DNA of 64,000 nt, taken from positions 36,425-100,424 of the IMG/VR virus record IMGVR_UViG_3300046474_000274, one strand, 5' to 3'. This document shows, piece by piece, positions 43,921 to 61,571 of this stretch. The notes under the pieces are model-generated. The model was not told where the DNA came from, did no database searches, and saw nothing but the letters and a program-made list of their open reading frames with translations. Both the position numbers and the translations under genes were made by a program. Numbering within the stretch: the first letter of the stretch is position 1; each line of letters begins with the position of its first letter. Source of the stretch: a virus. Lineage: Duplodnaviria > Heunggongvirae > Uroviricota > Caudoviricetes.

Positions 43921-44327
43921 TTAATCATCAAGAGCGAAGCAACGAAAGACGCGAGCGACACGATGACATGGGTTTTGCTTTGAGGGTGGCTACCTCGACC
44001 ACAAATAGCCCGGCCTGGATGAAGCCGTTATCCCACATACGGTAGGCGTGCCGTTATAGGAGATGGGCAGAGCAAATAGAGCCCTACCTCCCGGACGCTG
44101 ATTCCGATCCGTCGCCCCGCCGTCACGGTTAGCCTGGGTGAAAACAACTCAACCCCTATGCCTCGAATGGTCCGGCTACCGGCCGCAGTCGTTGTCAGGG
44201 GATCTGCTTGAGTGCTCACGATCCTCTCCTAGATCCGTATCCCGCCTTCCTGAAGGGTGATGACGGTGCGGAGAGAGATCAATGAACTCTCGGCATAGCT
44301 CCATAGCTATCTAGCTGCAAAGCTACC

Positions 44328-44383
44328 GCTCATAACCTACCGCGCCCCGAGAGCTCGGTTGCTAAAACTGAACGCAGCAATGA
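44328..44383 (+). promoter_or_regulatory. CATAACCTACCGCGCCCC...GCTAAAAC element immediately upstream of the AAA ATPase gene
   Basis: Second motif family. Confidence 0.55.
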
Positions 44384-44402
44384 CAACAAGGAAAGGTCAA
44401 GC

Positions 44403-46193
44403 ATGTCCACCACCAAGGAACGCGGTCTCGAGGTTCTCGAAGAGCTCCGCAAGGACAAGATCGAGGTCATCGTGGAGAACGATGAATTTCGCCACTTCAA
44501 GCTGAATGGCGTCGAATTCATCGAATTCCTGGAGAGCGGCTACGCCTATACCAACTGGATCGAGGCGATCTCTGCCACGCTCGGCCATCACGCGCTCAGC
44601 GATCGGAACGTCTATTCCGTTTCGTTCCTCGCCAACAATATGAAGAAGCTGGTCGAGCGCATCAGGCGGGTGCAGCGGGCTTTCGATAGCAACGCCCTCT
44701 TCAAGGAATCCCGCGCGGTTCTCGAAGTCGTTAAGGCAGCGGCCGCCCGCGTCGAAGAAGATCGCCGCACGCGTTTCGATGCCGGCTTGACGACCTTCGA
44801 CGACCTGCCGTTCCTCTTCGCCGAAGACGAGCGTATCACCTGGGAAAACAGCGACGAAATCCAGGTCGGCGGGTATTTCAAGAGCGCCGAATCCAAGCGG
44901 AGCTGGGGCGGCTCCTACATGCTCTTCCAGATCGAGGTGATCGCGAAGGTCGGCGTGTCCGTCACCCGCGCTCAGGTCGCTGCGACCGTTCCCGAGTTCA
45001 GCGGCACCATGGAAGTTGCCAAGCTGCCGATCGTCAAGCTGGTCGCGGGCTCGAAGGTCGAACGTGAATTGGTCGACCGCGGTCAGATTTTCGCATCGAT
45101 TGCTTCCGGCACTGCCTATGTCGAATACACCGGAATGCTGATCAAGCCGTCTTACTGGTCCGACGCCGTGCTTCGTGCCGACGGCCGCGTCATGATTGAC
45201 CCGGAATCGATGGGCCGTATCGACAACAAGGTCTACGACCAGGCCAAGCGCCGCATCATGTCGAAGAAGGGCTACAACGAGGACGATGATGTCGAGGTGA
45301 AGATCGAGACGGTCGAGGAGAAGGATCTCTTCGCCTGCTCGCCTTATGTCCTCGGCTTCTCGTTCCGTGCGAAGACCTGGGGCATGATGTTGGTCTCCGG
45401 CATCAAGCCGATCGATTGGGCGAAGGACGCTTTCGAGCGCCTGGTCCTCGAGCCCAAGACGAAGAAGCGCGTCCGCGCCCTCGTGCAGAACTCCAGCGGA
45501 TCGTTCTCCGACATCATCGGTGGCAAGGGCGGTGGTTGCGTCTTCCTGCTGCACGGCGAACCCGGTCAGGGCAAGACGCTGACGGCTGAAACCGTCGCTG
45601 AAGACCTGCGCCGGCCGCTCTACTCGATCTCCGTCGGCGAGCTCGGCACCGATCCGGACCAGCTCGAGGAACGCCTGCGCGAAATCCTCGACCTGGCGAC
45701 CATCTGGAATGCGGTCCTGCTGCTCGATGAAGCGGACATCTTCCTCGAAGCCCGCGATGAGAAGGACGTGCTCCGCAACGCCATGGTTGGCGTGTTCCTG
45801 CGTCTGCTCGAATATCACCAGGGCGTTCTGTTCCTGACCACGAACCGCGTTCGCAACATCGATCGCGCCTTCTATAGCCGTATCTCCGTCGCGATCGCCT
45901 TCACCAAGGCCGATATCGACAAGCGGGTGAAGGTCTGGACCAACCTGCTGAAGGCTGCCGGCCTCGCCATCAATGCGAGCGACATCACCGAACTGGCCGA
46001 CTCCGATCTCAACGGGCGTCAGATCAAGAACGTGATCCGCACGGCCGCAACCCTGGCCAAGCTCGACGGCGAGGCTGTCACGACCGATCGTCTGAAGGAA
46101 GAGATCGAGGAAGCGACCCGCTTCGAGCGCGAAATGCTCCAGGCACCTGACTACCTTGAAAAGCCCAAGCCGACGCTGGTCCGCGCGGCCTAA
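44403..46193 (+). CDS. AAA+ ATPase with a long N-terminal domain
   Basis: ORF track; Walker A GEPGQGKT; Walker B LLLDEAD; sensor/arginine region TTNRVRNIDRAFYSR. Confidence 0.85.
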   Translation: MSTTKERGLEVLEELRKDKIEVIVENDEFRHFKLNGVEFIEFLESGYAYTNWIEAISATLGHHALSDRNVYSVSFLANNMKKLVERIRRVQRAFDSNALFKESRAVLEVVKAAAARVEEDRRTRFDAGLTTFDDLPFLFAEDERITWENSDEIQVGGYFKSAESKRSWGGSYMLFQIEVIAKVGVSVTRAQVAATVPEFSGTMEVAKLPIVKLVAGSKVERELVDRGQIFASIASGTAYVEYTGMLIKPSYWSDAVLRADGRVMIDPESMGRIDNKVYDQAKRRIMSKKGYNEDDDVEVKIETVEEKDLFACSPYVLGFSFRAKTWGMMLVSGIKPIDWAKDAFERLVLEPKTKKRVRALVQNSSGSFSDIIGGKGGGCVFLLHGEPGQGKTLTAETVAEDLRRPLYSISVGELGTDPDQLEERLREILDLATIWNAVLLLDEADIFLEARDEKDVLRNAMVGVFLRLLEYHQGVLFLTTNRVRNIDRAFYSRISVAIAFTKADIDKRVKVWTNLLKAAGLAINASDITELADSDLNGRQIKNVIRTAATLAKLDGEAVTTDRLKEEIEEATRFEREMLQAPDYLEKPKPTLVRAA

Positions 46194-46275
46194 GCCTCAC
46201 GCAATGATCTGGAGAGGGCGCTTTCGAGCGCCCTTTTCGATGCGCCCCACCTGCCCGCGGATCCCTTTCGAACCC

Positions 46276-46335
46276 GCTCATCACCTGCCGCTCTCCAAGC
46301 GTGCGCTTGCTAAAACTAATCATCAGCAACGCACA
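46276..46335 (+). promoter_or_regulatory. GCTCATCACCTGCCGCTCTCCAAGCG...GCTAAAAC element upstream of the gene at 46351
   Basis: Second motif family. Confidence 0.55.
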
Positions 46336-46350
46336 AAGCGAGCCAACGCC

Positions 46351-46830
46351 ATGACCGACGAAGAACGCCACGCCAAGATCCGCGAACTCCTTACCGAAGA
46401 GGAGATGCTTGCTATCGCCACGGTATGCGGTGCGGCCGACGAGACCGCGGATGTGTGCGAAAGCAATGGCGACGAGAAGGAGGCGGATGAAATCTGGGAG
46501 GCGACAGGCAAGTTGGCCGCAATTCTCGGCCCCGAGCCCGAGCAGCCCGAGATGGCGCCACTGTCTGCATTTGTCTGCGTCGACTGCAGCACCAACACCC
46601 ACGAGACCGACGAATATTACATGGTGCATGACCATGTGTGGGAGAAGGAAGCGAGCATGGACAAGGAAGGCGGCATGCTTTGCATCGGTTGCCTCGAAAC
46701 CCGCATCAAGCGCCGGCTCACCGCTGACGACTTCACCTATGCGCCGGTCAACTTCATCTTCCTGCGGTCTGAGCGTCTCGCTGACCGGCTCCAGGGAAAG
46801 TCCCCTCTCGATATGAAGGAAGCAGCGTAA
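46351..46830 (+). CDS. Zn-binding hypothetical protein
   Basis: In frame with ORF 46156..46830; ATG after the conserved upstream element. Confidence 0.55.
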   Translation: MTDEERHAKIRELLTEEEMLAIATVCGAADETADVCESNGDEKEADEIWEATGKLAAILGPEPEQPEMAPLSAFVCVDCSTNTHETDEYYMVHDHVWEKEASMDKEGGMLCIGCLETRIKRRLTADDFTYAPVNFIFLRSERLADRLQGKSPLDMKEAA

Positions 46831-47090
46831 TGGCATACGGCGACTACGACGGCCCCAATAAGCCCGACAAGGGCCACGAGAACGGCTCCTGCAACCGCAC
46901 CCGCTGCCAGGCCGCACCGGCGCGCTGGTATAACCACGGCTCATACTCCTGGTATTGCGACTCCTGCCGCAACCAGATCGAGTTCGACACCTTGAACCTG
47001 CGCGACTGGCAGCGGAACTATCAGCCTCGGCTCAAGCACCCCATGTTCGAGACCCGTGAAATGATGGACGCGCGCAAGGAGGCGGCATGA
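46830..47090 (+). CDS. Zn-ribbon hypothetical protein
   Basis: ORF track. Confidence 0.5.
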   Translation: MAYGDYDGPNKPDKGHENGSCNRTRCQAAPARWYNHGSYSWYCDSCRNQIEFDTLNLRDWQRNYQPRLKHPMFETREMMDARKEAA

Positions 47091-47326
47091 GCAAGACCGT
47101 CACCTTCGGCAAGGGTATCGTCACGTTTCATAACGACGAGGGCGAGCAGATCGGACCCGCCTACCCCTGCACCGAGTTCAAGCTAACGGTCGAGAATCCT
47201 GAGCCGGTCACTAAAACGAAGATCAAGTGGTATGTTGGGACGACCGTCGATAAGGAAGGCAAGCTCACCAACTGGACCGCGGATAGCAAAGGAGGACTGA
47301 AGCCATGCCCCAATACCGCGTTGTGA
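47087..47326 (+). CDS. hypothetical protein
   Basis: ORF track. Confidence 0.5.
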   Translation: MSKTVTFGKGIVTFHNDEGEQIGPAYPCTEFKLTVENPEPVTKTKIKWYVGTTVDKEGKLTNWTADSKGGLKPCPNTAL

Positions 47327-47550
47327 CCGTATTGACCGTCGAAGCCGACGACCCGAAGCAGGCAGCGATGAAGGTCTTCGCCTTGCACGACACCATGACG
47401 CCGGAGGACTACCAGGTCCATCTGGCCTACGGCGTCAATGAGCCCAGCGTCGACGTGTTCCTCGAGCCGGACGACAAGGACGAGGCGCGCCGGGCGTATG
47501 CAGCGGGTGAATACTTCCCCGAGGTTAATATCTCCGAGAGCAAACCGTAA
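47305..47550 (+). CDS. hypothetical acidic protein
   Basis: ORF track; rho-independent terminator follows. Confidence 0.5.
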   Translation: MPQYRVVTVLTVEADDPKQAAMKVFALHDTMTPEDYQVHLAYGVNEPSVDVFLEPDDKDEARRAYAAGEYFPEVNISESKP

Positions 47551-47583
47551 TCCTCGGCAGGATATACTTCAAGACCTTCAGCT

Positions 47584-47615
47584 AAGGCGCCACCCCAGGC
47601 GCCTTTCTTTTTGCC
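47584..47615 (+). terminator. rho-independent terminator (GGCGCC-acccca-GGCGCC then TTTCTTTTTG)
   Basis: Hairpin plus T-run. Confidence 0.8.
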
Positions 47616-47667
47616 GTATGAATTGTTTCGCGCCACTGAACTTCGCGTATAGCGGGCGGATCCCTGT

Positions 47668-47696
47668 CTAAAAGTAAGTAAGTATTTACTTATATT
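47668..47696 (+). promoter_or_regulatory. palindrome copy CTAAAAGTAAGTAAGTATTTACTTATATT
   Basis: Family member. Confidence 0.5.
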
Positions 47697-47744
47697 AGCA
47701 GACCTGATATTTGTTGTGGATCCCAACTAATAGGATCCCAGGTC

Positions 47745-48020
47745 GTGACCGAACGCTTCAATTCTACTGCGGCATCTGGCGAAAGCGCCGCATTCTCACC
47801 TGCCGGCGAAATCATCCTGCAGCTCAAGGCCGATGACCCCAGGGCGAGAGTCGCGATCAAGGCGCGCGTTGATAGCGCAGCCGATTGGGAGATCGTCGCG
47901 ATCCTCGATCGCGCGATACCGGACAACCGGTTCATCAGGCTGCCCAAGTTTCCCTACCTCAAGCTCGAAATCGTCCGCAACACGGTCGGCAAGCTCGTCT
48001 CCGTCCGGGACGACAGCTAA
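47745..48020 (+). CDS. hypothetical protein (GTG start)
   Basis: ORF track. Confidence 0.45.
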   Translation: MTERFNSTAASGESAAFSPAGEIILQLKADDPRARVAIKARVDSAADWEIVAILDRAIPDNRFIRLPKFPYLKLEIVRNTVGKLVSVRDDS

Positions 48021-48334
48021 TGCTTCGGCTTCCCCTGATCCTGCCGTTGCACGAGAGGACGCGCCTGCGGTCGCTTAGGCGCGCGCCGCCCAGCGTTCAA
48101 GAGCCTGAGATCCCGGCAGTCGGCTCGGCTCTGCTGCTGAGCGACGGTGGGGTCTTCGCCCTCGCCGGCGACCAGGCCGCCTTTGACCTCGCCATTCACT
48201 ACGCCAGCGACAGAACGCTCGGCGACCTCCCCATTCGCACAGAAGCCGCGCCCAGCGACCTGCTGCTCGTCCACACGAGCGCCGGATCGCGCAAGATCAC
48301 CCTCGGCGATCTGCTTGACTCATTGGAGACCTAA
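48020..48334 (+). CDS. hypothetical protein
   Basis: In frame with ORF 47885..48334; TAATG overlap. Confidence 0.45.
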   Translation: MLRLPLILPLHERTRLRSLRRAPPSVQEPEIPAVGSALLLSDGGVFALAGDQAAFDLAIHYASDRTLGDLPIRTEAAPSDLLLVHTSAGSRKITLGDLLDSLET

Positions 48335-51300
48335 ATGGCTGATCGCCGCTTTATAGACCAGATGTTGACCGCGTCGCCCGAGACCGTCGCCACGGGCAAC
48401 CTGATTATCGAAGCCAATGGGCAGGAATACCGCGCGACGACGGCTGTCCTCGGCGGCGTGCACCTGTTCTTCCTGGACGAAGACAACCGCACGCCGGTTG
48501 TGCAATTTCGCCTGACCAGCCCCGGCCGGACGGTCGAGAACGTTCCAGTGACTTTGACGGCGACCGCGCCGAATGGAACGGTCGTGACCAAGTCGGCAAC
48601 GACCGACGCCCTTGGCAATGGATCGTTCGATTACACCGGCATCCTGGCACGCGGCCAGACCTATACGATCGAAGCCCGTGCGGCGATCTACCTGACCGCG
48701 ACGACGCAGAAGACCATCAATGCGCTGTCTGCACCGATCGACCCTGTCACGGCCACGTCGACGGGCAAGGTTGGCGATACCATCACCGTCAACGCCCTGA
48801 ACTTCGACGGCAGCCCGACCGGCTACCGCTATCGCTATCTGCGCGGCACCTCCTACGTCATTCCCGGCGCCGAAGGGCCGATCTACACCCTGCAGGCCGA
48901 CGACGACGCCGATATCATCACGGCTCAGGTCCAGGCGACGAACGCAGGTGGCGACAGCTCCTGGTATCCCGCAAACGGCATCGGCCCGGTGTCCAACAAG
49001 ACCTCCGCGCTGCTTGCGTCTCCGGTAATCAGCGGCTCCACCGCGCCCGGTAGCCGGCTGACCGTTACCTCGCCCGGCGCCGCGAGCGAGAATGCCGTCG
49101 TCAAGTCCGACGAGTGGCAGATCAACCAGGCCAAGATCCAGGCGCTGAAGGCTCCCCTCACCCGCTACCTGGGCGGCGCTGCGGCCGGTTCTGCGCCCAC
49201 GGCCTACCCCGACGGCGCCAATCATCATGGCGTCGGTCTCTCCAGTTCCGCCTACAGCGGCTCCAACACCTATAGCTTCTCCGTCAACACCAGTGCGACC
49301 GAGAACGACTATATTCCCGTTCTCGTCGGCGCGGCCGGTGGCAACGAAGGTGCGCAGGTTTACGACCTCTTCATCCGGCACCTCAACACCAATTCCAGCA
49401 TCCGCATCAAGATGTTCGCGGCGAAGTATCGAGGCGGCGCGCTGGTCGAAGAAGCGCAGATGACCAAGGTCGGCGCGACGGCTGGGCAGGAGCTGGCCGA
49501 ATGGGCAACGGTTGCCAATTCCACGCCGCACTGGACGCTGACGCACGACTTCGGCGAATGGCTGGAAGGCGATTATCTCGTCTTCCGGCAGCAGGCTCGC
49601 AACATCTCTGGCTCTGGCGCCAACAGCTACCAGTGGGACGCCCGCGCTGGCATTTCCTATGCAACGCTGCCGATCGGCAACGTCCAGGATCTGCAGAAGA
49701 CGCTGTCGGTGTTCACCACCCGTGCCGACATGGCCGGCAAGAATGTCCGGCTGGCCCGCACCTTCTCCAATCGCAACAACGACGTGGTCGCCTACTCCAA
49801 CGAAATCAGCATGGCAGCGGCTGTAGCCCAGACCCAGGCTCCGGCAAATACGACGCTGCCGACGATTGTCGCCGCCTCCGCTCGCTCCAACACCACCTGG
49901 CAGATCGACCTCGGCGCATGGAGCAATCAGCCGACCGGCTACGGCGTTCAGTGGCGTGCCGACGGTGTCGATATCGCTGGCGCCACGCTCATGAGCTATA
50001 AGCCGACTTCCGCCCAGGAAGGCCAGACGATCACCTGTGCCGTGATCCCGACCAACGGCGTCGGTGCTGGGATCGCTGCTGTCAGTCCGGGCGTCGTTGT
50101 CCAGTCCGCTGCAGCCTACTGGAATATCGCAACCGGCAACGACCTCAATGACGGCCTGACGGCTGAATTCGCCAAGCAGAACCTGACTGGCACCGACACC
50201 ATCCCGTCGGGCGCTACGGCTATTCTGAACGGCGATTTCGGGACGCGGTTGAAGGTCGGTAGCGGCCGGTTTTACGAAGGTCTTGGCGCTGCCCTGACCT
50301 CGATCGGCTCGACCAGCACCGCCTACGCCATCGACCACTACACCGATGATGGCTCGCTCGGCCGCAGCAACGTCACCGTCCGCAAGATGCGCATCACCTC
50401 TGGTGACCGCGCCATCATGGCTCGCCAGGGCAGCAACTGGGTGATCGAGGACGTTGTCATCGACAGCGCCGGCTTCAACCCGGTCGGCTCTGCCGAGAAC
50501 GCGTCCGGCATCTATTTCTACCGCAACAACGGCATCACGCTGCGCCGCGTTCAGTTGCTCCAGGTCATGTCTGACGGGTTTTACTCCGACACCAATGACA
50601 AGATCACGGTCGAGGACTGTCTCTTCATGCCGGTCTACACGGCCGAAGGCGACACCATCCAGACCCGTGCGGACCGCAACGACAGCAATGGCGCACCTGG
50701 TCCGCACCAGAAGGGCTTCCTCATGCGGGGAACCTTCCTGGACATGCATTCGCGCAAGACCGCGTCCGGCAAGGGCTGCCTGGTCACCAACATGCACGAC
50801 TACATTTTGATCCGGGATAACATCCTGGATGGGAACAACTTCGTCCACGGCACCGACGAGGGCGACAACCAGGTCTTCTGCCGCAACGTCAGCCGCTATT
50901 CGCGCAAGAATACCTATTCCTTCGGCTATGGCATCGGTGGCTACGACAACCAGCCGTCCTCGCACAATCACCAGCTCTACGACAATTCCTGGTATGACAT
51001 GAACCGGGCGCTGTCGTTCACCGGGATCTCGGTGACCGGCTATACCGGCACCAAGTCGGGCCGTGTCGACATCGTTGCCCACGACGAGACCGTCATCAAG
51101 TGCGCCAATGGCGTTCGTATCGACCGGCCGACCTCGGGCCGCTTCCGTGGCTTTGTCTTCCACAATGTCAGCAAGCCGCTCGATCGGACGCTGACGACGC
51201 TGCCGGTGGGTGGTGATATCCAGGCTTTCTTCTGGAGCGACCACTTCATCTATAACGGCAGCATCGCAGAGCCGCCCAAGGTCTTTGCTCGCGCACAGAT

Positions 51301-51952
51301 CAGCGGCAGCCGTGTGCCCGGCCAGGTTCTCTCCGGCCCCGACAGCATCTTCGACACGGCAGCGGTGCTTGCGGCCTTCCCGACCGCGGTCATCACTCGC
51401 TCCTACCAGTGGCGCCGGCACAAGCCTGCTGTCCAGTGGGCAAACTGGACCGGCGTGCACCTGGGCTGGCTGTGCGAGTGGATCGAGGGCGCTACCTCGT
51501 CCAGCTACACCGTCACCGACGCCGAACAGGGCTGCCGCGTCAGCCGCGTCGATCGCATTCACCTGACCTTCACCGAGGCTGGTGTTACGAAGACCATCAC
51601 GGCGCTGGCCTACGATGCGACCTATTCGACCTCGAGCGAGGTGCCGCGCACGGGTGATCTTGCCATCGCCCTGCCGGCGATGCCGACCACGGGTAACATC
51701 TCTGCGGCGTCCGCTGAAGGCGCCGTGGTTGTGGACCTGCCGGCACTGCTTAACGGTGAGACGCGCACGCTGCTGCACCCCAGCCGCGGCTATGACCCCT
51801 ACACCGGCACGGCAATCACCCTCGACGCCAACGGTGACCTGGTTCGTGGCGCTGGCGTTCTGACGGCCGGTAATACGGTCAGCTTCAAGATCCGGCAGAA
51901 GCGCGGCGTCGACGTGATCGACACCTCGGCCTCTTTGACGGTCGTTGCGTAG
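48335..51952 (+). CDS. large tail fibre / host-specificity protein (1205 aa) with Ig-like N-terminal repeats and a C-terminal beta-helix depolymerase-like domain
   Basis: ORF track; GGAGACC RBS; beta-helix signatures (DNILDGNNFVHG, RRVQLLQVMSDGFY). Confidence 0.8.
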   Translation: MADRRFIDQMLTASPETVATGNLIIEANGQEYRATTAVLGGVHLFFLDEDNRTPVVQFRLTSPGRTVENVPVTLTATAPNGTVVTKSATTDALGNGSFDYTGILARGQTYTIEARAAIYLTATTQKTINALSAPIDPVTATSTGKVGDTITVNALNFDGSPTGYRYRYLRGTSYVIPGAEGPIYTLQADDDADIITAQVQATNAGGDSSWYPANGIGPVSNKTSALLASPVISGSTAPGSRLTVTSPGAASENAVVKSDEWQINQAKIQALKAPLTRYLGGAAAGSAPTAYPDGANHHGVGLSSSAYSGSNTYSFSVNTSATENDYIPVLVGAAGGNEGAQVYDLFIRHLNTNSSIRIKMFAAKYRGGALVEEAQMTKVGATAGQELAEWATVANSTPHWTLTHDFGEWLEGDYLVFRQQARNISGSGANSYQWDARAGISYATLPIGNVQDLQKTLSVFTTRADMAGKNVRLARTFSNRNNDVVAYSNEISMAAAVAQTQAPANTTLPTIVAASARSNTTWQIDLGAWSNQPTGYGVQWRADGVDIAGATLMSYKPTSAQEGQTITCAVIPTNGVGAGIAAVSPGVVVQSAAAYWNIATGNDLNDGLTAEFAKQNLTGTDTIPSGATAILNGDFGTRLKVGSGRFYEGLGAALTSIGSTSTAYAIDHYTDDGSLGRSNVTVRKMRITSGDRAIMARQGSNWVIEDVVIDSAGFNPVGSAENASGIYFYRNNGITLRRVQLLQVMSDGFYSDTNDKITVEDCLFMPVYTAEGDTIQTRADRNDSNGAPGPHQKGFLMRGTFLDMHSRKTASGKGCLVTNMHDYILIRDNILDGNNFVHGTDEGDNQVFCRNVSRYSRKNTYSFGYGIGGYDNQPSSHNHQLYDNSWYDMNRALSFTGISVTGYTGTKSGRVDIVAHDETVIKCANGVRIDRPTSGRFRGFVFHNVSKPLDRTLTTLPVGGDIQAFFWSDHFIYNGSIAEPPKVFARAQISGSRVPGQVLSGPDSIFDTAAVLAAFPTAVITRSYQWRRHKPAVQWANWTGVHLGWLCEWIEGATSSSYTVTDAEQGCRVSRVDRIHLTFTEAGVTKTITALAYDATYSTSSEVPRTGDLAIALPAMPTTGNISAASAEGAVVVDLPALLNGETRTLLHPSRGYDPYTGTAITLDANGDLVRGAGVLTAGNTVSFKIRQKRGVDVIDTSASLTVVA

Positions 51953-51967
51953 CTACATAGCTATATA

Positions 51968-52004
51968 GCTCCATAGCTGTTTGCGCGGCTATGGAGCCTT
52001 TTCG
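51968..52004 (+). terminator. terminator after the 1205-aa fibre gene (GCTCCATAGC..GCTATGGAGC then CTTTTCG)
   Basis: 10-bp stem plus short T-run; embedded in a TAGCTA array. Confidence 0.65.
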
Positions 52005-53357: not shown

Positions 53358-54590
53358 TAGGTTGCACCACAACCTTTACATACAACCTTCCACATGACAA
53401 GGTTTGTCAGGTCTAGGCCCGGCCAGGCCATTAAAACAGGTATTCGGCCAGCCCAAAACGTAAAGGTCAGGCAAGGCTAAAACCCACCTTCTCTGGGACC
53501 AACCTTGACAGAGTTTTACCTTTTCTTGACAAAAACACCCGAAATCGCAAATTTCGGCAATCTGTCAAGTTAAGCAACAGCTAATCCTCGATCTCGAAAA
53601 CAGACATAGAGACTCGCTGACGCGATCCCTGACATAGAGATGAGTCACAGAGCGTCAGACACGACCCTCGCACTCACAGACGAGATATGAGCGAACCCTG
53701 GAAGCTCGGGCACCAAAGGGTCAAAACATATTCGAGCATCACGACACCCATAGAGAGGGAGACACATAGACGGGTAGCTAGATGGCTATAGAGCTAGGTG
53801 TGACCATAGAGAGGTGACGTGCGTATAGAGGGAGACAGTGCGTCGGGGTGTGCCTGGGGTGAGTGCCTGCGTGTGGAGAGGGTGCGTAGGGTAATCGTCG
53901 AGAGGAGGTAGTAGGCCGCGCCGCGGTTTCCCACGGTCGCACACGGACACCCATCACCTCCCGCCCCAGACCACGCCAATCCACGGAGACGCACGGCGCC
54001 CGACCCCTCGCCTGCCCTGATTGCACTCCATGCTGCCCTGAGCTAAACGTCAATCATCGAATTCGAGCGCTGTCACCCGGAGCGCTCTTGAGCGGAGCAG
54101 TCATGCTCCCGCTTTCTTCGTAGTTGCTGATCTCGCCGTCGGGTGCGAGCGAGACACCTAATAGGCGCGTCTGGTCCGAAATGGCCGGCGCGCCTTCTTT
54201 TTGGCATTTCGGGGAACGGGGCGCATCTGCCTCACCGGAGAGTAGGAGCCCTCACCCATGGACTGCCGTGGAGATCCGCGGATCTCATCACCGGAACCTT
54301 CATTCCCGTCCGCACACCGTCTATACCTTACACCTAATGACAAAGGTATAAGGTATATAATATTTACGATGAACGGACGGGAATGAAGGTTCCGGCATTT
54401 CGTTTCGCCGCGGCTATCCGTGGAGTTCCGTGGGTGTGACCAGTATAGGCAAAGGCTTACCTGCGGGCCGTGGCTCCCGCCCGTGTATTGCCCTCTGCCG
54501 CCCCGTCCCTCACCACTACTACCCCTAGAATTCTCTCTGTATTGTCTAATCATCGAAAGCGATAAAGCTTCGATCTAAACAGCAACACAG
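53358..54590. repeat. 1.2-kb ORF-free region: nested palindrome CTTGACA..CGAAAT-CGC-AAATTTCG..TGTCAAG, seven (C/T)ATAGAG(A/G) iterons, a purine/G-run-rich tract, palindrome GAGATCCGCGGATCTC, and a 20-bp-arm inverted repeat GGAACCTTCATTCCCGTCCG..CGGACGGGAATGAAGGTTCC around an AT-rich core; origin or terminus candidate
   Basis: No ORF with coding GC3; repeats read directly from the sequence. Confidence 0.6.
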
Positions 54591-54604
54591 AAGGAATGAC
54601 CGAA

Positions 54605-55597: not shown

Positions 55598-55608
55598 TAA
55601 CCAGAGGG

Positions 55609-55646: not shown

Positions 55647-55880
55647 AGGCGGAAGGGCACGGGGTTGGGGAACGGCTTAGGATCAAGGGATCCGTGGTTA
55701 GGAGGAATTGACAGGGGACGGGCTCCACCGATGGCCGTGCCCCGGCCAGGCCCTGAGACCGGCCACCCCTGCCCTACTCCCGGCCATTCCCACGGGAGCC
55801 CGTGGCACACCATCCATCACCGCGAGACACCCGCGACTGCCATTTGCGAAACTCTTCACATCAACAAAGGAGAGTTTCAA

Positions 55881-56018
55881 ATGTTCGACGACCGCAGCTT
55901 CAAGGAAATCATCCTCGACCAACTCAAGGACACCGCGGCCTTTGCTGCCGTCATTGCCCTCGTCTGGGCCATCGCTGCCTGGGCCGTCTACAACGCGCCC
56001 GCACACTTGCCTGTATAA
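55881..56018 (+). CDS. micro membrane protein (45 aa, one TM helix)
   Basis: AAAGGAGAG RBS; in frame with the C-terminus of ORF 55641..56018. Confidence 0.5.
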   Translation: MFDDRSFKEIILDQLKDTAAFAAVIALVWAIAAWAVYNAPAHLPV

Positions 56019-56023
56019 GCCTG

Positions 56024-56052
56024 TAGCTATCTAGCTAGATAGCTAATAATCT
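56024..56052. repeat. TAGCTA palindromic-hexamer array (GTAGCTATCTAGCTAGATAGCTAATAATC); one of about 11 such arrays between 44.3 and 61.4 kb
   Basis: Other arrays near 44294, 51950, 53772, 56710, 57772, 57862, 59022, 59300, 60230 and 61357. Confidence 0.6.
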
Positions 56053-56094
56053 AACAATGCAAACAGCAACTTAGCTCAAAACGGAGATAGCTAA

Positions 56095-56433
56095 ATGTCC
56101 TACCTGACCGAACTCACCACCCAGCACTCGATCGCCGAAGCAGCTCGCTCCCTCGACATCCTGCAGGCGGCTCAACAGCACAAGCTGCCTGCGGACGCCA
56201 AGAAGCACGCTCTGCTCGCAACGGTGATGCGCGAGCATGCTGACCGCTTCCAGCGCCTGGCGACGCAGCAGAGCGTCATGAGCCCGGACGAGTTCTTCAA
56301 GAAGGCGTTCGAACGTGTCCGCGAAATGCGCGCCGACGCAGCCTCGATGATGAAGATCAGGCGCGAGAAGCGCGAGCGTGATGCAGCCGAACGCGCCGAC
56401 GTGCTCGAACAGATGGGCATGATCGCCGCCTGA
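56095..56433 (+). CDS. hypothetical protein
   Basis: ORF track; ACGGAGA RBS; TAGCTA array upstream. Confidence 0.55.
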   Translation: MSYLTELTTQHSIAEAARSLDILQAAQQHKLPADAKKHALLATVMREHADRFQRLATQQSVMSPDEFFKKAFERVREMRADAASMMKIRREKRERDAAERADVLEQMGMIAA

Positions 56434-56991
56434 TCGAACGAACCGCAGCGATGACCGCAGCTCTCATGGGCTGCGGTTGTTTCTGGGCTCGGTCATAGGG
56501 CACGGGCATGGGAGAAGGGGTTTTGGGGAACGGCTTAGGATACAGGGATCCGGCGTCTGGCTGAGGCGGGCTAGGGCACGGACCCCAGGGGCGCGGGGTA
56601 GGGGTCCGCCGAACCCTTGTGACGGGTTCGGCTTTAGGCGTGCCCTGCCCCTTCCGCCTGCCCAAACGAAAGCCCCGGTCCTTGGGAGACCGAGGCTATC
56701 CGTGGATGTGGCTAGGTAGCTATATGGCTATCGAGGTCAAGCCCAGCCGCGGGCTTGCGAACCGGTTGCGATGATGAGGGTCCGGGTGATAATCAAGAGC
56801 CCGTGGCGAGACCAGGTGAACCGTGGGGAGTAGCAAGGGTTCGAGCGGATAAGCATGGTCTGGGCTCCGTGGGGATTTGGGGAACGGGGTGGCTCACCCC
56901 TATGGGTGGTCAGGGGACGCGGCAGGGAGGCGCCGGGCGTCAAGCTAATGTAGCGAGCGCTTATGTAGCGCTCGCTCTTATTAGTGCTTGC

Positions 56992-57588
56992 TTATGCAGC
57001 TATCTCGTCTTCGCTGCTTTCGTCTTCGATTTCGACCTTCGCGGTGTCGAGCTTGAACGCGTCAGCGAGAGCTTGCGCCAGTGACGTGAGGTTGACGGTG
57101 TAAGCGTTTCTCATGTCTGCGCGAGCTTCGATGATGTTCAGCGTCAGGAGCGCGTCTCTGCTCGTCTGTGACTGCGCGGCGATCGTTTCAGGCGTCTGAA
57201 TGATCGCACGACGGTAGACGAGGTGCGTCAAGCTGTCATCGACAGTTAAGTCTCTGCTAATAGACGCTTCGATCATTGCTTGCGTCAGCGGAGCGTCATT
57301 ACGGTAGCAGAGGAGCGCGGTGCGGAAGATCGCATAGGTGTTTTCGTTAAGGTCTTTGGCATTGAGAGCGACGGCTTGAGAAGCGAACTTGACGACTTTC
57401 TCACATGCATAGATGGCGCGTGAGAGACGGTCGGGATCGACGGATGCTTCGGCGAGCATATCGGCGAGCTTTTCGTTAGCGAGCATGGTGGCGAGCTTGC
57501 GCATCTTCTTTTCGTTAGAAGCGGAGCAGTCATTCGTCAGAGCGATGGAGAGACGAGCGACGATTGCAGAGTGATATTCATTAGACAT
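56992..57588 (-). CDS. hypothetical protein on the minus strand inside a lower-GC island
   Basis: ORF track; codon usage is AT-richer than the rest of the window. Confidence 0.6.
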   Translation of the reverse strand: MSNEYHSAIVARLSIALTNDCSASNEKKMRKLATMLANEKLADMLAEASVDPDRLSRAIYACEKVVKFASQAVALNAKDLNENTYAIFRTALLCYRNDAPLTQAMIEASISRDLTVDDSLTHLVYRRAIIQTPETIAAQSQTSRDALLTLNIIEARADMRNAYTVNLTSLAQALADAFKLDTAKVEIEDESSEDEIAA

Positions 57589-57861
57589 TGCTTGGACTTT
57601 CTTCGTTAGCGTTATGAGCGTTGCTTAGCTCGACTTCGAAGCGGTGCTTATTTGCTTGTTTCGCTTCGATGATTTGACTTTATCGAAGTCTTAGATTGGT
57701 TCAAGCGAGCTGATGGGGATGCCTTCTGCGGCCCAGAGATCCGGTGATCGGAACCTCCCATACCTGGCCACGTAGCTATCTAGCCAGGTCCGTTCTCTCC
57801 ACTTCTCCACCCCGGCCGCAGTTACCCCGGTGCCCTATCCTCCTCTGCCATAGCCAGGCAG

Positions 57862-57903
57862 CCAAATAGCCATCTAGCTAGATGTAAGTAAGTGTTTACT
57901 TAT
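57862..57903 (+). promoter_or_regulatory. TAGCTA array followed by the TAAGTAAGTGTTTACTTA palindrome just upstream of the tRNA-Met/Trp pair
   Basis: Carries both motif classes. Confidence 0.5.
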
Positions 57904-57937
57904 CTCTCCAAGGATGCTAGGGATTTCCTATCGTTGA

Positions 57938-58014
57938 CGCGGGATAGCTCAGTTGGTCAGAGCGCTGGACTCATAATCCAGAGGTCGTCGGTTCAAGTCC
58001 GACTCCCGCAACCA
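57938..58014 (+). tRNA. tRNA-Met(CAU) with an initiator-like C1:A72 mismatch; ends ...CCCGCAACCA as in E. coli tRNA-fMet
   Basis: D-arm TAGCTCAGTTGGTCAGAGC; anticodon arm CTGGA-CTCATAA-TCCAG; T-arm GTCGG-TTCAAGT-CCGAC; CCA encoded. Confidence 0.85.
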
Positions 58015-58029
58015 GCCTCCTCGTCGCAA

Positions 58030-58105
58030 GGGTGTGTAGCTCAATGGATCAGAGCAGCGGTCTCCAAAACCAAAGACCAGGGTTCGATTCCCTGCTCACC
58101 CGCCA
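58030..58105 (+). tRNA. tRNA-Trp(CCA)-like; anticodon loop CTCCAAA as in E. coli tRNA-Trp but the anticodon stem has two mismatches
   Basis: Acceptor GGGTGTG/CTCACCC (one mismatch); D-arm TAGCTCAATGGATCAGAGC; T-arm CAGGG-TTCGATT-CCCTG; CCA encoded. Confidence 0.6.
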
Positions 58106-58128
58106 ACTCTAACGTGGTTCGTTGCCTT

Positions 58129-58524
58129 ATGCCCTCTCCCTACAAGAACGCCGTCTGCCGCGGCTCCATCTTCCTCAACACCGGCTGCGGTCATTGCGAG
58201 CGCTGCAAGGAAGAACAGGCACGCATCGCCGAGAAGTCCGATACTCATGAAGCTGAAAAGCTGGATAGCCATGTAGCTACACAGGTCGCTGGCCTGCCGG
58301 TCGCGGGCTACAAGAAGACCCAGCCGCCTCACCTCATCGCGCTCGTCAACGAGAACAAGGTTCTCGAGGAGAAGATCCTTCGCCAGATCGACCTGCACGT
58401 CCAGCGCGGCGCCGAACTCGACCAGCGCTCGGTGCAGATGGCCCGTGGATTGATCGAGGATGCCTTCATGCGGCTCAACCGCGGCGTCTTCCAGCCGCAG
58501 CGCCTCGATGGTGACCTCGAATGA
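58129..58524 (+). CDS. Zn-finger hypothetical protein (CRGSIFLNTGCGHCERC)
   Basis: C-terminal part of ORF 57892..58524; the N-terminal part of that ORF runs across the two tRNA genes and is spurious. Confidence 0.5.
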   Translation: MPSPYKNAVCRGSIFLNTGCGHCERCKEEQARIAEKSDTHEAEKLDSHVATQVAGLPVAGYKKTQPPHLIALVNENKVLEEKILRQIDLHVQRGAELDQRSVQMARGLIEDAFMRLNRGVFQPQRLDGDLE

Positions 58525-59033
58525 GCGTCGTCATCTACGACAGCCAGCGGGGCCTGATGGCTGCTGACAGCCGCGCCTACGGTGGCGATGCGCATCCAAT
58601 CGGTAACAAGATGAAGATCCACCGGATCAAGAGCGGCCCGTTCGAAGGCTGCCTTCTCGGGGTCACCTCGGCCGTGCCCGGCATGGCAGAAGAATTCAGG
58701 CAGTGGGTGACGGAAGGCATGAACAAGGAAGCCTTTGCGCCGACGACGCCGGACCTCGATGCTCTCCTGGTGAACACTGACGGCGAGGTCTACCTCTTCA
58801 GCGATGCCTATTATCCGTCCGGGCCGCTGATGGGTGACGTGTTTACCGTCGGCTCGGGCAAGAAGTATGCGCTTGGTGCCTTTCACGCCGGCGCCAGTGC
58901 CTCCCAGGCCGTCGAGGCTGCGATCGCCTGCGATACCATGTGCGGCGGGCCGGTCGCGACCCTCGAGCTGCATCCCAGGGCCGACCCTGACCAGCTTCCG
59001 CTCGACCTCCCTTCCCCTCGCGTAGCTGAATAG
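58521..59033 (+). CDS. HslV/proteasome-like Ntn-hydrolase family protein
   Basis: ORF track; N-terminal MSVVIYDS; VFTVGSGKKYALGAFHAGA parallels the HslV segment LIAIGSGGPYAQAAARALL. Confidence 0.6.
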   Translation: MSVVIYDSQRGLMAADSRAYGGDAHPIGNKMKIHRIKSGPFEGCLLGVTSAVPGMAEEFRQWVTEGMNKEAFAPTTPDLDALLVNTDGEVYLFSDAYYPSGPLMGDVFTVGSGKKYALGAFHAGASASQAVEAAIACDTMCGGPVATLELHPRADPDQLPLDLPSPRVAE

Positions 59034-59056
59034 CTACCTAGCCAGAAAGCTATTTC

Positions 59057-59263
59057 ATGCTCAAGCACGTCCTCCTGACGCTCAACCTGTTCGCGGCGCT
59101 GATCGTCGTGGCGCTCCTCATTGCATTCGCCGGCGTCGTCATCCCGATCGCGCTCGCGTGCTTCGTCGGCTTCATCCTCTTCCTCTGGCGGATGTCGCAC
59201 CTGGTCGAAGGTGGCTACTTCCTCTGGTGCCGGCTGAAGCGGTTCCCGCGCGAGTTCGATTAA
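59057..59263 (+). CDS. small membrane protein (two TM helices)
   Basis: ORF track; a bidirectional terminator follows. Confidence 0.55.
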   Translation: MLKHVLLTLNLFAALIVVALLIAFAGVVIPIALACFVGFILFLWRMSHLVEGGYFLWCRLKRFPREFD

Positions 59264-59266
59264 ACC

Positions 59267-59299
59267 AAAAGGCCCGGCGATGACCGGGCCTTCCTCATT
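59267..59299. terminator. bidirectional terminator at the strand switch (GGCCCGG-cgatga-CCGGGCC flanked by AAAA and TTCCTCATT)
   Basis: Lies between convergent genes. Confidence 0.7.
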
Positions 59300-59318
59300 C
59301 AGCTATGTGGCTCTGTAG

Positions 59319-59567
59319 CTATTTAGCTTTTTCCTTCTCGACACGCTCCCAGGTCGCGAAGCACTCGATCAGCAGATCCTTCATGTCCATACCGCGCGAG
59401 ACCGCGGTCATTTTGAATCGGGTGTGCCAGTCGCGCGGCATGTTGAAGGTCATGCCGACCAACTTCTCACCCTTCATGTTATTGGCCGCCTCGACCGGCT
59501 TTGTCTGCTCGGGCAGGAAGGCGGTCTTCTTCGGGGGAGGGGCTACCTTGGCACGGCTCTCTATCAT
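59319..59567 (-). CDS. parG: ParG-like ribbon-helix-helix centromere-binding protein
   Basis: ORF track; ...MPRDWHTRFKMTAVSRGMDMKDLLIECF fits the ParG RHH region (HTRFK); ATGA overlap with parA. Confidence 0.65.
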   Translation of the reverse strand: MIESRAKVAPPPKKTAFLPEQTKPVEAANNMKGEKLVGMTFNMPRDWHTRFKMTAVSRGMDMKDLLIECFATWERVEKEKAK

Positions 59568-60217
59568 GCGGCTTCTCCAATAGCGCTGGCGCGATCGACA
59601 ATCTCGGCTGCGAGCAGGTCTGCAACTTCTTCCAGCTTACCCACATGCTTCTCGACCTCAGATAAGGCGTAGCCGTGGTTTTGTGCGCGCTGGTATGAAA
59701 TCTTGGCCGCGATCTCCTGGCGAGCGACATAGAAGCCGGTCGCCGTGGTCAGGTAATCGCGGGCCGCGTTGACCGCGGACTTGCTCTCGGTGATCTTGTT
59801 GAGGACGAAGACGATCCGCTCCTTCGGCACGCCCTTGGCGATGAGCTCCATACCAAAGGCAAGCTGCGGCTCCAGGTCGTCGAGCGGCAGCCCGGTCGGG
59901 ATGACGACCAGGTCCGAGAGGAGGGCGATGTCGAGTGAGGATTGATCGGAGTCCGGTCTGCCGTCGGCAACGACCAGATTGTAGTCCTCGCGGCGCATGG
60001 CTGTCGGCTGGACGAAGGGTGCTGCGTCGATGACGGGCTCGAGGCCGGCCTGCTTGCGGATCTCGGCCCATTTGACCGAGGTGAGCTGCTTCGTGTTGAA
60101 GTCCGCGATCTTCACGGTCCATTGGGCCGTGGCGTATGTTCTGGCAATCAGACGGGCGAGGGTGGACTTGCCAACCCCGCCCTTCTGGGACAGGCATGCG
60201 ATGATCAGGTCAGCCAT
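59564..60217 (-). CDS. parA: ParA/ParF-type partition ATPase
   Basis: ORF track; deviant Walker A LSQKGGVGKST; 217 aa. Confidence 0.85.
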   Translation of the reverse strand: MADLIIACLSQKGGVGKSTLARLIARTYATAQWTVKIADFNTKQLTSVKWAEIRKQAGLEPVIDAAPFVQPTAMRREDYNLVVADGRPDSDQSSLDIALLSDLVVIPTGLPLDDLEPQLAFGMELIAKGVPKERIVFVLNKITESKSAVNAARDYLTTATGFYVARQEIAAKISYQRAQNHGYALSEVEKHVGKLEEVADLLAAEIVDRASAIGEAA

Positions 60218-60285
60218 ATGTCTATGTCCCTATGTAGCTATCTAAGTGGATAGCTACAGGGCTACCTGATTCAGGTTAATGGAGT

Positions 60286-60726
60286 CTATACCGAATAGCC
60301 GCGCATCATCATTTCGCGACGACGTTCCATGTATTCCCGATCCGGAGGACCATCGGCCGGCTCGAACCAGTCCATGTCGAAGATCTCCTCGAGCTGATCC
60401 TTGTCGACCTGTAAGACCCGGTAGCGGTAGTCCTTGCAGTCCTGCGCGAAGTTCTCGATAACCTCGCACTCCTCCTTCGAGACGCCGTGCTTCTTAAACA
60501 CCTCTGCCTCGAATTCAGGGCCATACTCAGCAAGGTGAAGATTGTCGATCCGGAAATGAGCCCATTCGATCGACAAGCGCAGCTCGCGCACCGCTTCGAA
60601 AGTGGGCAAGGCTCCAGAAGCGGCGAACGAGACTTCGGGCGCGATCGCGATCCTGTGTTCGCGCTGGCCGGGGCGAGGGGAGATCTTAGCCTCCCCAACC
60701 CGGCGATTGCCGAGATACACCTGCAT
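60286..60726 (-). CDS. hypothetical protein
   Basis: ORF track. Confidence 0.55.
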   Translation of the reverse strand: MQVYLGNRRVGEAKISPRPGQREHRIAIAPEVSFAASGALPTFEAVRELRLSIEWAHFRIDNLHLAEYGPEFEAEVFKKHGVSKEECEVIENFAQDCKDYRYRVLQVDKDQLEEIFDMDWFEPADGPPDREYMERRREMMMRGYSV

Positions 60727-61289
60727 CAGTGAACACGCCCGATGACGGTGACCAGCTTCTCCATGAGATCCAGGCGCGCGGCCTTCGAATCCATGCCGCG
60801 GGCGAGACCATCATTGTGAATGATGTGATCGGCGTATTCGGGATTATAGCGGTCGAACTCGTAAGGGCTCTCGCCTGCCAGCGGGTTCTTGATCTCGAGG
60901 ACGAGAGCGCCCTTTTCCTTCCAGTAGCGACCCTGCTCACGCCGGACGGAGCCGAACACGGAGTAGGCGCCCTTCGGCCGGGCGTTGTGGCTCATGATCG
61001 GGATGATGTCGCCGCCGAACTTCTCTTCGAAGGCATTGCCGATTTCGCCGAGGATCTCGCGCACGACCCACTCGCGGCCGTTGAGCGTGACCTTTTCGAG
61101 CTTGCCTTCCTGGGTGAAGACCTGCTCGGGCGTGAGGCCGAAATAGTCGATGGCGATCATGCGCAAGGGCCGGCCGTCATCGGCGACATCGTGACCGTAG
61201 ATTTCGTTGATGATCTCGGAAGCCGTGGTCTTGCCGGACGTGGGATTGCCGCAAAGGGCGATGATCTTCGGGATGCTCGGGGTGGTCAT
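60726..61289 (-). CDS. deoxynucleoside monophosphate kinase-like P-loop protein
   Basis: ORF track; P-loop CGNPTSGKTT; AGGAGA RBS; minus-orientation promoter cassette upstream. Confidence 0.7.
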   Translation of the reverse strand: MTTPSIPKIIALCGNPTSGKTTASEIINEIYGHDVADDGRPLRMIAIDYFGLTPEQVFTQEGKLEKVTLNGREWVVREILGEIGNAFEEKFGGDIIPIMSHNARPKGAYSVFGSVRREQGRYWKEKGALVLEIKNPLAGESPYEFDRYNPEYADHIIHNDGLARGMDSKAARLDLMEKLVTVIGRVH

Positions 61290-61308
61290 AAGCGCTTGTC
61301 TCCTGCGA

Positions 61309-61340
61309 CTAAGTAAGTGCTTACTTACTTATAGCGAGAC
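61309..61340 (-). promoter_or_regulatory. promoter cassette in minus orientation (reads CTCGCTATAAGTAAGTAAGCACTTACTTAG on the minus strand) upstream of the minus-strand dNMP kinase operon
   Basis: Its orientation follows gene orientation. Confidence 0.65.
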
Positions 61341-61382
61341 AGCGGGAGCGCTGCATATTTAGCTAGGCAGCTAGATAGCTAT

Positions 61383-61571
61383 TCAGCCAGAAATGACAGG
61401 TTCGGCTTCGTCCTCGCCGGCGAGCACAGCCAGGCGCATTGCGAGCGAGCGGCAGCGCCGCTCAAGCTCGTCGTTTTCGTCCCGCAGCCGCTGCAGCTCG
61501 GCGTGCAGGTGATCAGCAGATAAAATCGAGTGGCCGCGCTCGTTGAAGAAATGGATCGGATTGATCAGCAT
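61383..61571 (-). CDS. possible small protein
   Basis: ORF track; start overlaps the helicase stop. Confidence 0.35.
   Translation of the reverse strand: MLINPIHFFNERGHSILSADHLHAELQRLRDENDELERRCRSLAMRLAVLAGEDEAEPVISG

Follow-up and report, generated by a model that had tools for sequence, protein, structure and literature searches.

In the TP228 partition system, the boxes bound by the ribbon-helix-helix (RHH) protein ParG (ACTC) are always separated by 4-bp spacers, i.e., they lie 8 bp apart center to center, with flexible orientation, and one ParG dimer binds each box, cooperatively, the same boxes serving as operator (OF) and as centromere (parH) (PMC3130281, PMC3413123). The 8-residue ribbon of ParG (KRVNVNFD) sets specificity, and its α-helical scaffold sets the spacing (PMC3130281, PMC3413123). 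Here, we analyzed a stretch of 64,000 nucleotides from a virus of the class Caudoviricetes (IMG/VR record IMGVR_UViG_3300046474_000274, positions 36,425 to 100,424; hereafter, the window), in which arrays of the palindromic hexamer TAGCTA occur on both sides of a parA-parG gene pair and at other places, and compared this locus with the closest described systems. We consider it fairly probable, from sequence comparison, that the arrays are the binding sites ("ParG boxes") of the ParG-like RHH protein and together make up a scattered centromere and operator set.

The chromosomal metabolic repressor MetJ is an RHH dimer that binds the 8-bp palindromic met box AGACGTCT, with 2 to 5 tandem boxes and cooperation between neighboring dimers, and the proteins of N15 and RK2 are of the helix-turn-helix (HTH) ParB type. 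In plasmid pSM19035, the RHH protein omega is both centromere binder and regulator and needs at least four contiguous repeats for ParA activation (PMC9499535). Three parS sites of this plasmid overlap promoters, and, because RHH partition proteins are unable to spread, repeat number is important (PMC9499535, PMC5016525). In the Myxococcus plasmid pMF1, ParB sites lie upstream and downstream of the par operon and are also dispersed, some of them within open reading frames (ORFs), with the imperfectly palindromic 8-mer AGATGTCT as the unit, and N15, RK2 (KorB), and pSM19035 have been listed as other replicons with dispersed sites (PMC3235114).

Judged by its sequence, the window is part of an approximately 117-kb alphaproteobacterial phage-plasmid of the B1VFA/RHEph10/pLM21S1 family. 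DNA identity was about 74% to the Rhizobium phages B1VFA, V1VFA-S, and RHph_X66, with RHEph10 being more distant, and the window also matched plasmids of about 117 kb, namely Sinorhizobium pLM21S1, an R. beringeri plasmid, and Methylobacterium, Shinella, and Pararhizobium plasmids. Published descriptions class members of the family as plasmid-like prophages or phage-plasmids that carry repC, parA, and parB (PMC4447125, PMC12509600). The gene order of the window matches that of B1VFA from about 106.6 kb, across the end of that record, to about 50 kb, and by this comparison the window holds no packaging or structural genes. The par locus comprises two genes:

59564..60217, minus strand: parA, a 217-aa Walker-type ATPase, small and ParF-like (type Ib), whose stop overlaps the parG start by 4 nt
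59319..59567, minus strand: parG-like gene, 82 aa, with a disordered N-terminal tail (conserved Arg5) and a C-terminal RHH domain

The best PDB matches of ParA were a chain named 'ParA' (5U1G) and TP228 ParF (4DZZ) (E about 1.5e-5 each), and it also matched Pfam CbiA and the PHROG family phrog_164 (ParA-like, 2e-21). As in type Ib systems, it is of the small, ParF-related Walker type that carries no N-terminal DNA-binding domain, and the gene directly downstream, translationally coupled to parA, encodes an RHH-type protein with a flexible N-terminal tail. HMMER alignment identified VGMTFNMP as the ribbon of this ParG-like protein, which ends ...KLVGMTFNMPRDWHTRFKMTAVSRGMDMKDLLIECFATWE...; the best PDB sequence for its family profile was TP228 ParG (1P94, E 0.0034), and hhalign of the family against the RHH domain of ParG gave a probability of 95.9%. 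In an AlphaFold2 model, residues 1 to 36 were unstructured and of low confidence (pLDDT 52 to 63), residues 37 to 44 extended, and residues 45 to 57 and 62 to 81 helical, so that the modeled topology is that of an RHH monomer. The family numbers at least 334 proteins, many encoded on contigs of 109 to 120 kb and one named ParG in UniRef; a profile search of genome contigs with the ParG alignment returned one locus only, from Chelativorans.

By sequence, the system belongs with type Ib ParF/ParG partition, from which it departs in its box and in its dispersed arrays. Like TP228, it has a small ParF-like ParA beside a short RHH protein with a disordered N-terminal tail and boxes at a fixed 8 bp center to center immediately upstream of the ATPase gene (six boxes reaching to the parA ATG), one site could serve as both operator and centromere, and the box sequence varies with the ribbon. 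Unlike in TP228, the box is a palindromic hexamer, TAGCTA, and not the tetramer ACTC, the spacers are not AT-rich, and, in place of a single operon-adjacent centromere made of one 20-box block, 13 short arrays (3 to 6 boxes) extend across 34.1 to 61.4 kb, i.e., about 27 kb; moreover, the replicon is a 117-kb phage-plasmid, and the similarity to ParG (the profile and hhalign values above) is weak.

Short-repeat arrays at several separate loci are also a feature of the delta/omega system of pSM19035, which differs in its 7-bp heptads (omega consensus WATCACW), its arrays of 7 to 10 at three promoters, and its Firmicute host. The period here is 8, not 7, and omega was not among the PDB sequence matches of the ParG-like profile. 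Binding sites of omega overlap the promoters of several operons; here, three or four arrays abut promoter-like motifs, and others lie at sites without an evident promoter. The likeness to pMF1, N15, and RK2 lies in the dispersal of the sites, and pMF1 differs in having six sites on an 18.6-kb plasmid with a parCAB organization. The geometry of the met boxes is the same as that of the TAGCTAnn arrays, but MetJ has S-adenosylmethionine as corepressor and no ParA partner, and no homology to it was detected here. Dispersed centromere-like sites are thus already known (pSM19035, pMF1, RK2, N15), and it is the short-array type Ib version that is new. Literature searches found no earlier description of the TAGCTA repeats, and dispersed ParG-box arrays are apparently undescribed for the rhizobial phage-plasmid family.

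Box unit, array counts, and positions

TAGCTA occurred 22 times in the window, compared to 3.25 expected from dinucleotide-preserving shuffles (largest shuffle, 7), which bears out the enrichment suggested by an earlier reading of the letters alone (the sequence-only reading). That reading had listed 11 intergenic sites with 2 to 4 closely spaced hexamers each. All 11 exist, at or within a few bases of where they had been placed, and the two strings that it quoted are present at 56023-56045 and 60230-60266. The clusters are therefore real, but the actual repeat unit is the hexamer T-A/G-G-C-T/C-A followed by 2 spacer bases, repeated in tandem at 8 bp in arrays of 3 to 6 boxes, and degenerate copies retain the central GC. 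Over 46 boxes, the consensus was R-T-A-G-C-T-A-Y, in which the central GC is imposed by the selection of boxes.

Arrays with at least three in-phase units numbered 12 in the window, compared to 0.39 expected (shuffle maximum, 2), and a stricter mismatch criterion likewise gave 12 arrays, compared to 0.0 in 200 shuffles. Period 8 alone yielded arrays, with none at periods 6, 7, 9, 10, and 11. A signal seen at period 12 was an artefact of the internal TA..TA of the unit. With the site upstream of parA included (boxes 60219-60264), the total comes to 13 arrays, as follows, seven of which have exactly four boxes:

34089..34110: three units (TAGCTAgcTAGCTAtaTAGCCA) in AT-rich intergenic DNA; the matching region has a three-unit array in pLM21S1 (locus L004, 4970) and a single TAGCTA in B1VFA (18920)
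44296..44325: four units, 78 nt upstream of the AAA-ATPase gene (44403), abutting a promoter-like element, CCGCTCATAACCT...GCTAAAAC; orthologous array in B1VFA at 28683
51950..51979: four units over the stop codon of a 1205-aa ORF, ending 2 nt before the next ORF
53775..53796: three units within a 1.2-kb non-coding gap (53358-54595); array in the matching B1VFA gap at 38841
56024..56093: three perfect units (56024-56045) and a pair 16 bp apart (56072-56093), filling the intergenic space up to the ATG at 56095; orthologous arrays in B1VFA (41686) and pLM21S1 (21107)
56709..56730: three units between convergent genes, hence not in a promoter position
57765..57786: three units in the divergent region between a minus-strand gene (56992-57588) and tRNA-Met; B1VFA 43326
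57851..57880: four units directly upstream of an 18-bp palindrome (57885-57902, described below) and 58 nt upstream of tRNA-Met; the layout of array and then palindrome is repeated at B1VFA 44222
58250..58279: four units, the only intragenic array, in the ORF 58129-58524, which encodes a protein with an Acb2/Tad1-hairpin domain
59023..59052: four units, reaching from the stop codon of 58521-59033 to within 4 nt of the ATG at 59057; orthologous arrays in pLM21S1 (24670) and Phaeobacter (L022, 10691)
59300..59329: four units over the parG-like stop codon, beside a terminator-like hairpin (about 59268-59293) between convergent genes
60219..60264: six in-phase boxes (TGTCTA, TCCCTA, TAGCTA, TAAGTG, TAGCTA, GGGCTA), beginning 1 nt before the parA start codon and covering the AGGGA ribosome-binding region
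61360..61389: four units over the stop codon of a 62-aa ORF and, read on the minus strand, directly upstream of a phage-type promoter and palindrome (61310-61327) that precede a deoxynucleoside monophosphate (dNMP) kinase-like gene; orthologous arrays in B1VFA (47897), pLM21S1 (27018), Phaeobacter (8205), and RHEph10 (22854)

Twelve of the 13 arrays lie in non-coding DNA, which makes up 14.6% of the window (binomial P about 1e-9), and several overlap stop codons. The intragenic array (58250-58279) had been overlooked in the sequence-only reading, as had the pair at 56072-56093. B1VFA (44699) and pLM21S1 (23765) retain the 8-bp AGCY periodicity of the intragenic array, although the pLM21S1 DNA differs, and, reading by eye, the peptide encoded there also appears different. 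The statement that no site occurs in the first 44 kb did not hold, given the three-unit array at 34089-34110; a lone TAGCTA at 31303 is the tail of an unrelated palindrome. A relaxed two-unit scan of the first 34 kb of the window found no site.

The geometry of the arrays is mixed. They lie between convergent genes, in co-directional gaps of 23 to 30 bp, within one ORF, and beside phage-type promoters, and they show no constant distance or orientation relative to start codons. A scan of 43.8 to 63.3 kb for sigma-70 promoters and terminators showed no enrichment and no promoter at the arrays, and an Rfam search of 33 to 64 kb returned two tRNAs only, the array-bearing non-coding gaps matching no known RNA family.

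Box class and ParG ribbon in related replicons

In the complete B1VFA genome, arrays were found only at 28.7 to 47.9 kb, apart from one perfect triple at 105.1 kb. No arrays were present in its structural, packaging, and replication modules (48 to 105 kb) and none near its repC (92.4 to 93.5 kb). The perfect triple box, TAGCTAatTAGCTAgaTAGCTA (B1VFA 105096-105125; loci L001 to L003), directly follows GCTATAAG, the usual position of the palindrome, and its counterpart would fall just left of the window. Perfect triple boxes were also found in the IMG/VR loci L033, L034, L050, and L056, metagenomic relatives with flanks that match the first kilobases of the window. When IMG/VR was searched with the perfect triple box, at least 9 of 30 loci belonged to the phage-plasmid family, and the rest were unrelated and AT-rich.

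Box sequences in the relatives were compared using a consensus-free tally of period-8 triple repeats, which replaced a lag-autocorrelation scan that was too noisy in GC-rich DNA. TAGCTA came out as the top hexamer for the window, pLM21S1, and most related loci, including the Chelativorans contig and a 110.7-kb Phaeobacter contig, and TCGCTA for RHEph10 and its relatives. Set beside the ribbon of the ParG-like protein, the boxes fell into these classes:

Ribbon xxM[T/S]FNMP: dominant period-8 box TAGCTA in 14 of 16 loci
Ribbon RDLNFKVD: TCGCTA in 4 of 4 loci
Ribbon KDMSFKVP (Shinella, one locus): TTTCGY
Ribbon VDLNFKVE (pAMS5a, one locus): TCGC-type array upstream of parA

All box classes were enriched over shuffles except that of pAMS5a. 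The two main clades share 1 of 8 ribbon positions and about 53% identity in the two helices, with HTRFKMTA invariant. Aligned to ParG, the ribbon shows conservative replacements at its inward-facing residues (M-F-M to L-F-V) and radical ones at those facing outward (G-T-N to D-N-K). The Shinella replicon has the TAAGTAAG palindrome in common with the window, yet a different ribbon and different boxes, which argues for a box class tied to the ribbon and not to overall divergence.

In every relative examined, arrays lie on both sides of parA-parG. Among the TAGCTA-class loci, boxes lie directly upstream of parA in all 12, with TAGCTA-N10-TAGCTA kept in most, and in 11 of the 12 an array overlaps the parG stop codon or follows it within about 10 nt. 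Boxes of the respective class occupy both par positions in RHEph10, Pararhizobium, and Shinella and the parA-upstream position only in pAMS5a, the arrays at the parG stop codon being next to a terminator hairpin, and class-specific arrays also lie at orthologous places between the 62-aa gene and the kinase-like gene.

An unrelated, AT-rich tailed-phage contig of 40% GC (L042; IMGVR_UViG_3300000228_000092) has long tandem arrays of the 8-bp unit ATTAGCTR between structural genes (at 1773, 4919-4990, 5735-5830, and 9175-9260) and encodes no ParG-like MTFNMP ribbon. It may be an independent instance of boxes with an 8-bp period.

Candidate roles of the arrays

Homology of the binder to ParG, the 8-bp spacing of the ParG family, the bracketing of parA-parG, and the covariation of box and ribbon together point to the arrays as ParG boxes. 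The sequence-only reading had raised centromere-like repeats bound by the ParG-like protein as one of two possibilities, and homology, spacing, position, and ribbon covariation all speak for it; from the sequence, we infer the binding itself, its cooperativity, centromere activity, and regulation by the ParG-like protein. In the mechanism that we propose, one ParG-like dimer would bind each palindromic TAGCTA, a hexamer that suits a 2-fold symmetric dimer, and the two-stranded β-ribbon VGMTFNMP would read the major groove. Three to six dimers would coat an array cooperatively at 8 bp center to center, like TP228 ParG on parH and OF. The six-box array at the parA start codon, placed like the OF operator of TP228, is the likeliest autoregulatory site; it would act as the operator of parA-parG and also be part of the centromere. 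Together with the array at the parG stop codon and about 11 other short arrays over 27 kb, this array would make up the distributed centromere. The disordered N-terminal tail of the ParG-like protein would engage the ParF-like ATPase ParA and thereby bring about segregation of the approximately 117-kb plasmid prophage. Where arrays adjoin phage promoters (44296, 57851, and 61360), they would probably also couple transcription of neighboring operons to ParG occupancy. The mixed geometry of the arrays suggests a function tolerant of position, i.e., a distributed centromere, which would affect regulation at some promoters as a side effect, and we speculate that many dispersed arrays are a way for a 117-kb replicon to load enough protein.

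Several observations weigh against this interpretation. Most arrays hold three or four boxes, and three-box arrays may bind weakly. In pSM19035, activation of ParA is poor with three repeats and takes at least four (PMC9499535), and in TP228, four boxes gave about half of the centromere activity (PMC3130281). The box spacers are 55% A+T and thus not AT-rich, unlike the parH spacers. The Pfam RHH_10 match of the ParG-like protein (E 0.011) was below the cut-off, and although the top Foldseek matches of the monomer model in the PDB were nearly all RHH proteins, their E values exceeded 0.9, so that this search served as a consistency check only. The covariation amounts to few independent switches, i.e., two large clades and Shinella. 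Two loci with the xxM[T/S]FNMP ribbon (L014 and L015) have 2-unit TAGCTA sites only, and the Methylobacterium replicon pAMS5a has few arrays, of which only the TCGC-type array upstream of parA is convincing. The ribbon ASMTFVMP still goes with AGCTA boxes, keeping the AGCT core, and the ribbon ADMTFRMD goes with one GAGCTA x4 array on a 3.3-kb contig, again with this core, while no clear box class was seen on 9 kb for VSMTFSMD. As the variant ribbons keep the AGCT core and too few units are available, we claim no simple residue-to-base code. Furthermore, the papers on pLM21S1 and B1VFA are silent on the repeats (PMC4447125, PMC12509600), and the sequence agrees equally with the dispersed arrays acting as centromere, as operators, or as both.

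The arrays could alternatively be purely operators, the ParG-like protein acting as a global repressor or modulator of an approximately 27-kb module and only the parA-proximal arrays, if any, serving as centromere. We regard this as unlikely, though worth serious attention, since phage-type promoter elements stand immediately beside the arrays at 44296 and 61360, the 57851 array occupies the -35/-10 zone just before the palindrome, and the perfect triple box of B1VFA follows GCTATAAG at the usual spot of the palindrome. RHH partition proteins do double as repressors (PMC9499535, PMC3413123), and three-box arrays are the poor ParA activators mentioned above for pSM19035 (PMC9499535). Promoter control alone, however, does not account well for arrays between convergent genes (56709 and 59300), inside an ORF (58250), or in co-directional gaps of 23 to 30 bp (51950 and 59023), none of which has an evident promoter, or for the inconstant distance and orientation to start codons; moreover, such a role overlaps with the ParG-box reading rather than excluding it.

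It is improbable, in our view, that another protein binds the boxes, be it a ParB_N-domain protein, a small phage protein, or a host factor. Two ParB_N-domain proteins are encoded from 63225 onward in the window, and every relative has such a pair of genes about 2 kb away from the par genes; furthermore, since the two main clades differ in all their proteins, ParG is not singled out by covariation alone. Nevertheless, tandem 8-bp boxes are a known signature of ParG-type RHH proteins and not of HTH ParB, the change between clades is concentrated in the ParG ribbon, and Shinella keeps the family palindrome while changing ribbon and boxes together. A host factor is further disfavored by B1VFA and RHEph10, both Rhizobium phages, using different boxes.

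The sequence-only reading had also offered the arrays as late-promoter or activator sites marking a structural or late regulon. Their location in non-coding DNA and their restriction to one part of the genome agree with such a role, which we nonetheless consider very improbable. With structural and packaging genes outside the window and the structural module of B1VFA free of arrays, this reading fails. The boxes are palindromic and hence orientation-independent, some lie between convergent genes or in an ORF, and none shows promoter-like geometry, which is instead found in another motif set, i.e., GCGCTCC-N~12-GCGCTATAAG with the TAAGTAAGnnCTTACTTA palindrome. The 1205-aa ORF (48335-51952, plus strand), a putative tail fiber in the sequence-only reading, has a sub-threshold β-helix match only (E 0.0074). 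The homologue in B1VFA carries a hypothetical annotation, and the tail fiber annotated there lies elsewhere (75 to 81 kb). That the clusters reflect chance or composition, or are replication iterons of a RepC-type replicon, is hardly credible, as nothing speaks for it beyond their being short repeats in non-coding DNA, shuffles gave about 0 arrays, the arrays are kept from Rhizobium to Phaeobacter, and those of B1VFA keep clear of repC.

A wider version of the ParG-box reading, which we put forward tentatively as a possibility, would make the ParG-like protein a master organizer of the plasmid state across a widespread family of alphaproteobacterial phage-plasmids of about 110 to 120 kb, with the distributed centromere, about a dozen short arrays over 20 to 27 kb, replacing spreading, a plasmid-state regulon under its control, and ribbon-box pairs that amount to incompatibility or immunity groups with a readable RHH code. 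If this were so, the plasmid-state regulon would comprise partition, tRNAs, the Acb2/Tad1-like anti-defense gene, the AAA ATPase, and a ligase, and would be kept apart from the rest of the genome, which would be governed by the TAAGTAAGnnCTTACTTA palindrome and the phage promoter. The pairs with TAGCTA, TCGCTA, TTTCGY, and possibly GAGCTA would then be the incompatibility or immunity groups. Phage-plasmids are common, and, to our knowledge, their maintenance and regulation are largely undescribed outside P1, N15, and SSU5. No centromere is named in the papers on the rhizobial family, which report parA, parB, and repC (PMC4447125, PMC12509600), and a candidate site set and binder can now be proposed for at least 334 homologues. 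Dispersed four-box arrays would be one possible answer to how non-spreading RHH partition proteins build large complexes on big replicons. The ribbon-box pairs could also predict incompatibility between co-resident phage-plasmids and extend the ParG-scaffold toolkit for artificial RHH transcription factors.

Palindrome, promoter motif, and other features near the arrays

An 18-bp palindrome, TAAGTAAGnnCTTACTTA (TAAGTAAG-NN-CTTACTTA), had 20 matches at about 18 sites distributed over the whole window, compared to 0.02 expected, and is regularly accompanied by a promoter-like motif, GCGCTCC-N~12-GCGCTATAAG, immediately upstream, often with GCTCAT[C/A]ACCT before it:

3429, 7786, 8908, 11937, 14599, 16101, 20127, 21033, 23901: palindrome, 18 bp each
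28537, 31287, 35993, 37650, 41961, 47675, 57885, 61310, 63192: palindrome, 18 bp each
3394-3419, 7756-7783, 11909-11934, 14564-14589, 28508-28534, 35964-35990, 37620-37647: examples of the promoter-like motif
about 61329-61352, minus strand: promoter-like motif

Most palindrome sites end 12 to 16 nt before a start codon. B1VFA has 39 of them genome-wide, including among the structural genes; pLM21S1, Phaeobacter, and Shinella also have the palindrome, and RHEph10 lacks it. The palindrome may act as a global operator or as a hairpin of the 5' untranslated region, independently of the TAGCTA system. The promoter-like motif may be recognized by the sigma-70-family factor of B1VFA (B1VFA_132), and, going by their arrangement, motif and palindrome together are a better candidate than TAGCTA for the general promoter/operator system of the phage.

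At 33900-34150, an AT-rich intergenic region, two TTG(T/A)C-TAAATCAA-like elements flank the boxes of the 34089 array. The small ORFs beside this array gave no Pfam matches, and we therefore draw no link to a lysis-lysogeny switch. The 1.2-kb non-coding gap at 53358-54595 is also found in B1VFA, pLM21S1, and pAMS5a. Direct repeats of CATAGAGA(GG) lie in it at 53600-53840, and an inverted repeat (48-nt arms, 79% complementary) lies at 54291-54395. The gap had no Rfam match and could be an origin, a packaging site, or an RNA of a new kind.

The ORF at 58129-58524 (plus strand), just downstream of the tRNA pair, encodes the Acb2/Tad1 hairpin domain (Pfam E 4.7e-10). The Acb2/Tad1 family comprises anti-CBASS and anti-Thoeris nucleotide sponges, and homologues of this type lie near parG in the Phaeobacter locus and in L025 as well. 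Finally, ARAGORN called a tRNA with a four-base anticodon (tcag) at 15267-15340 (plus strand), where B1VFA has no annotated tRNA; this could be a frameshift-suppressor-like tRNA or a mis-call.

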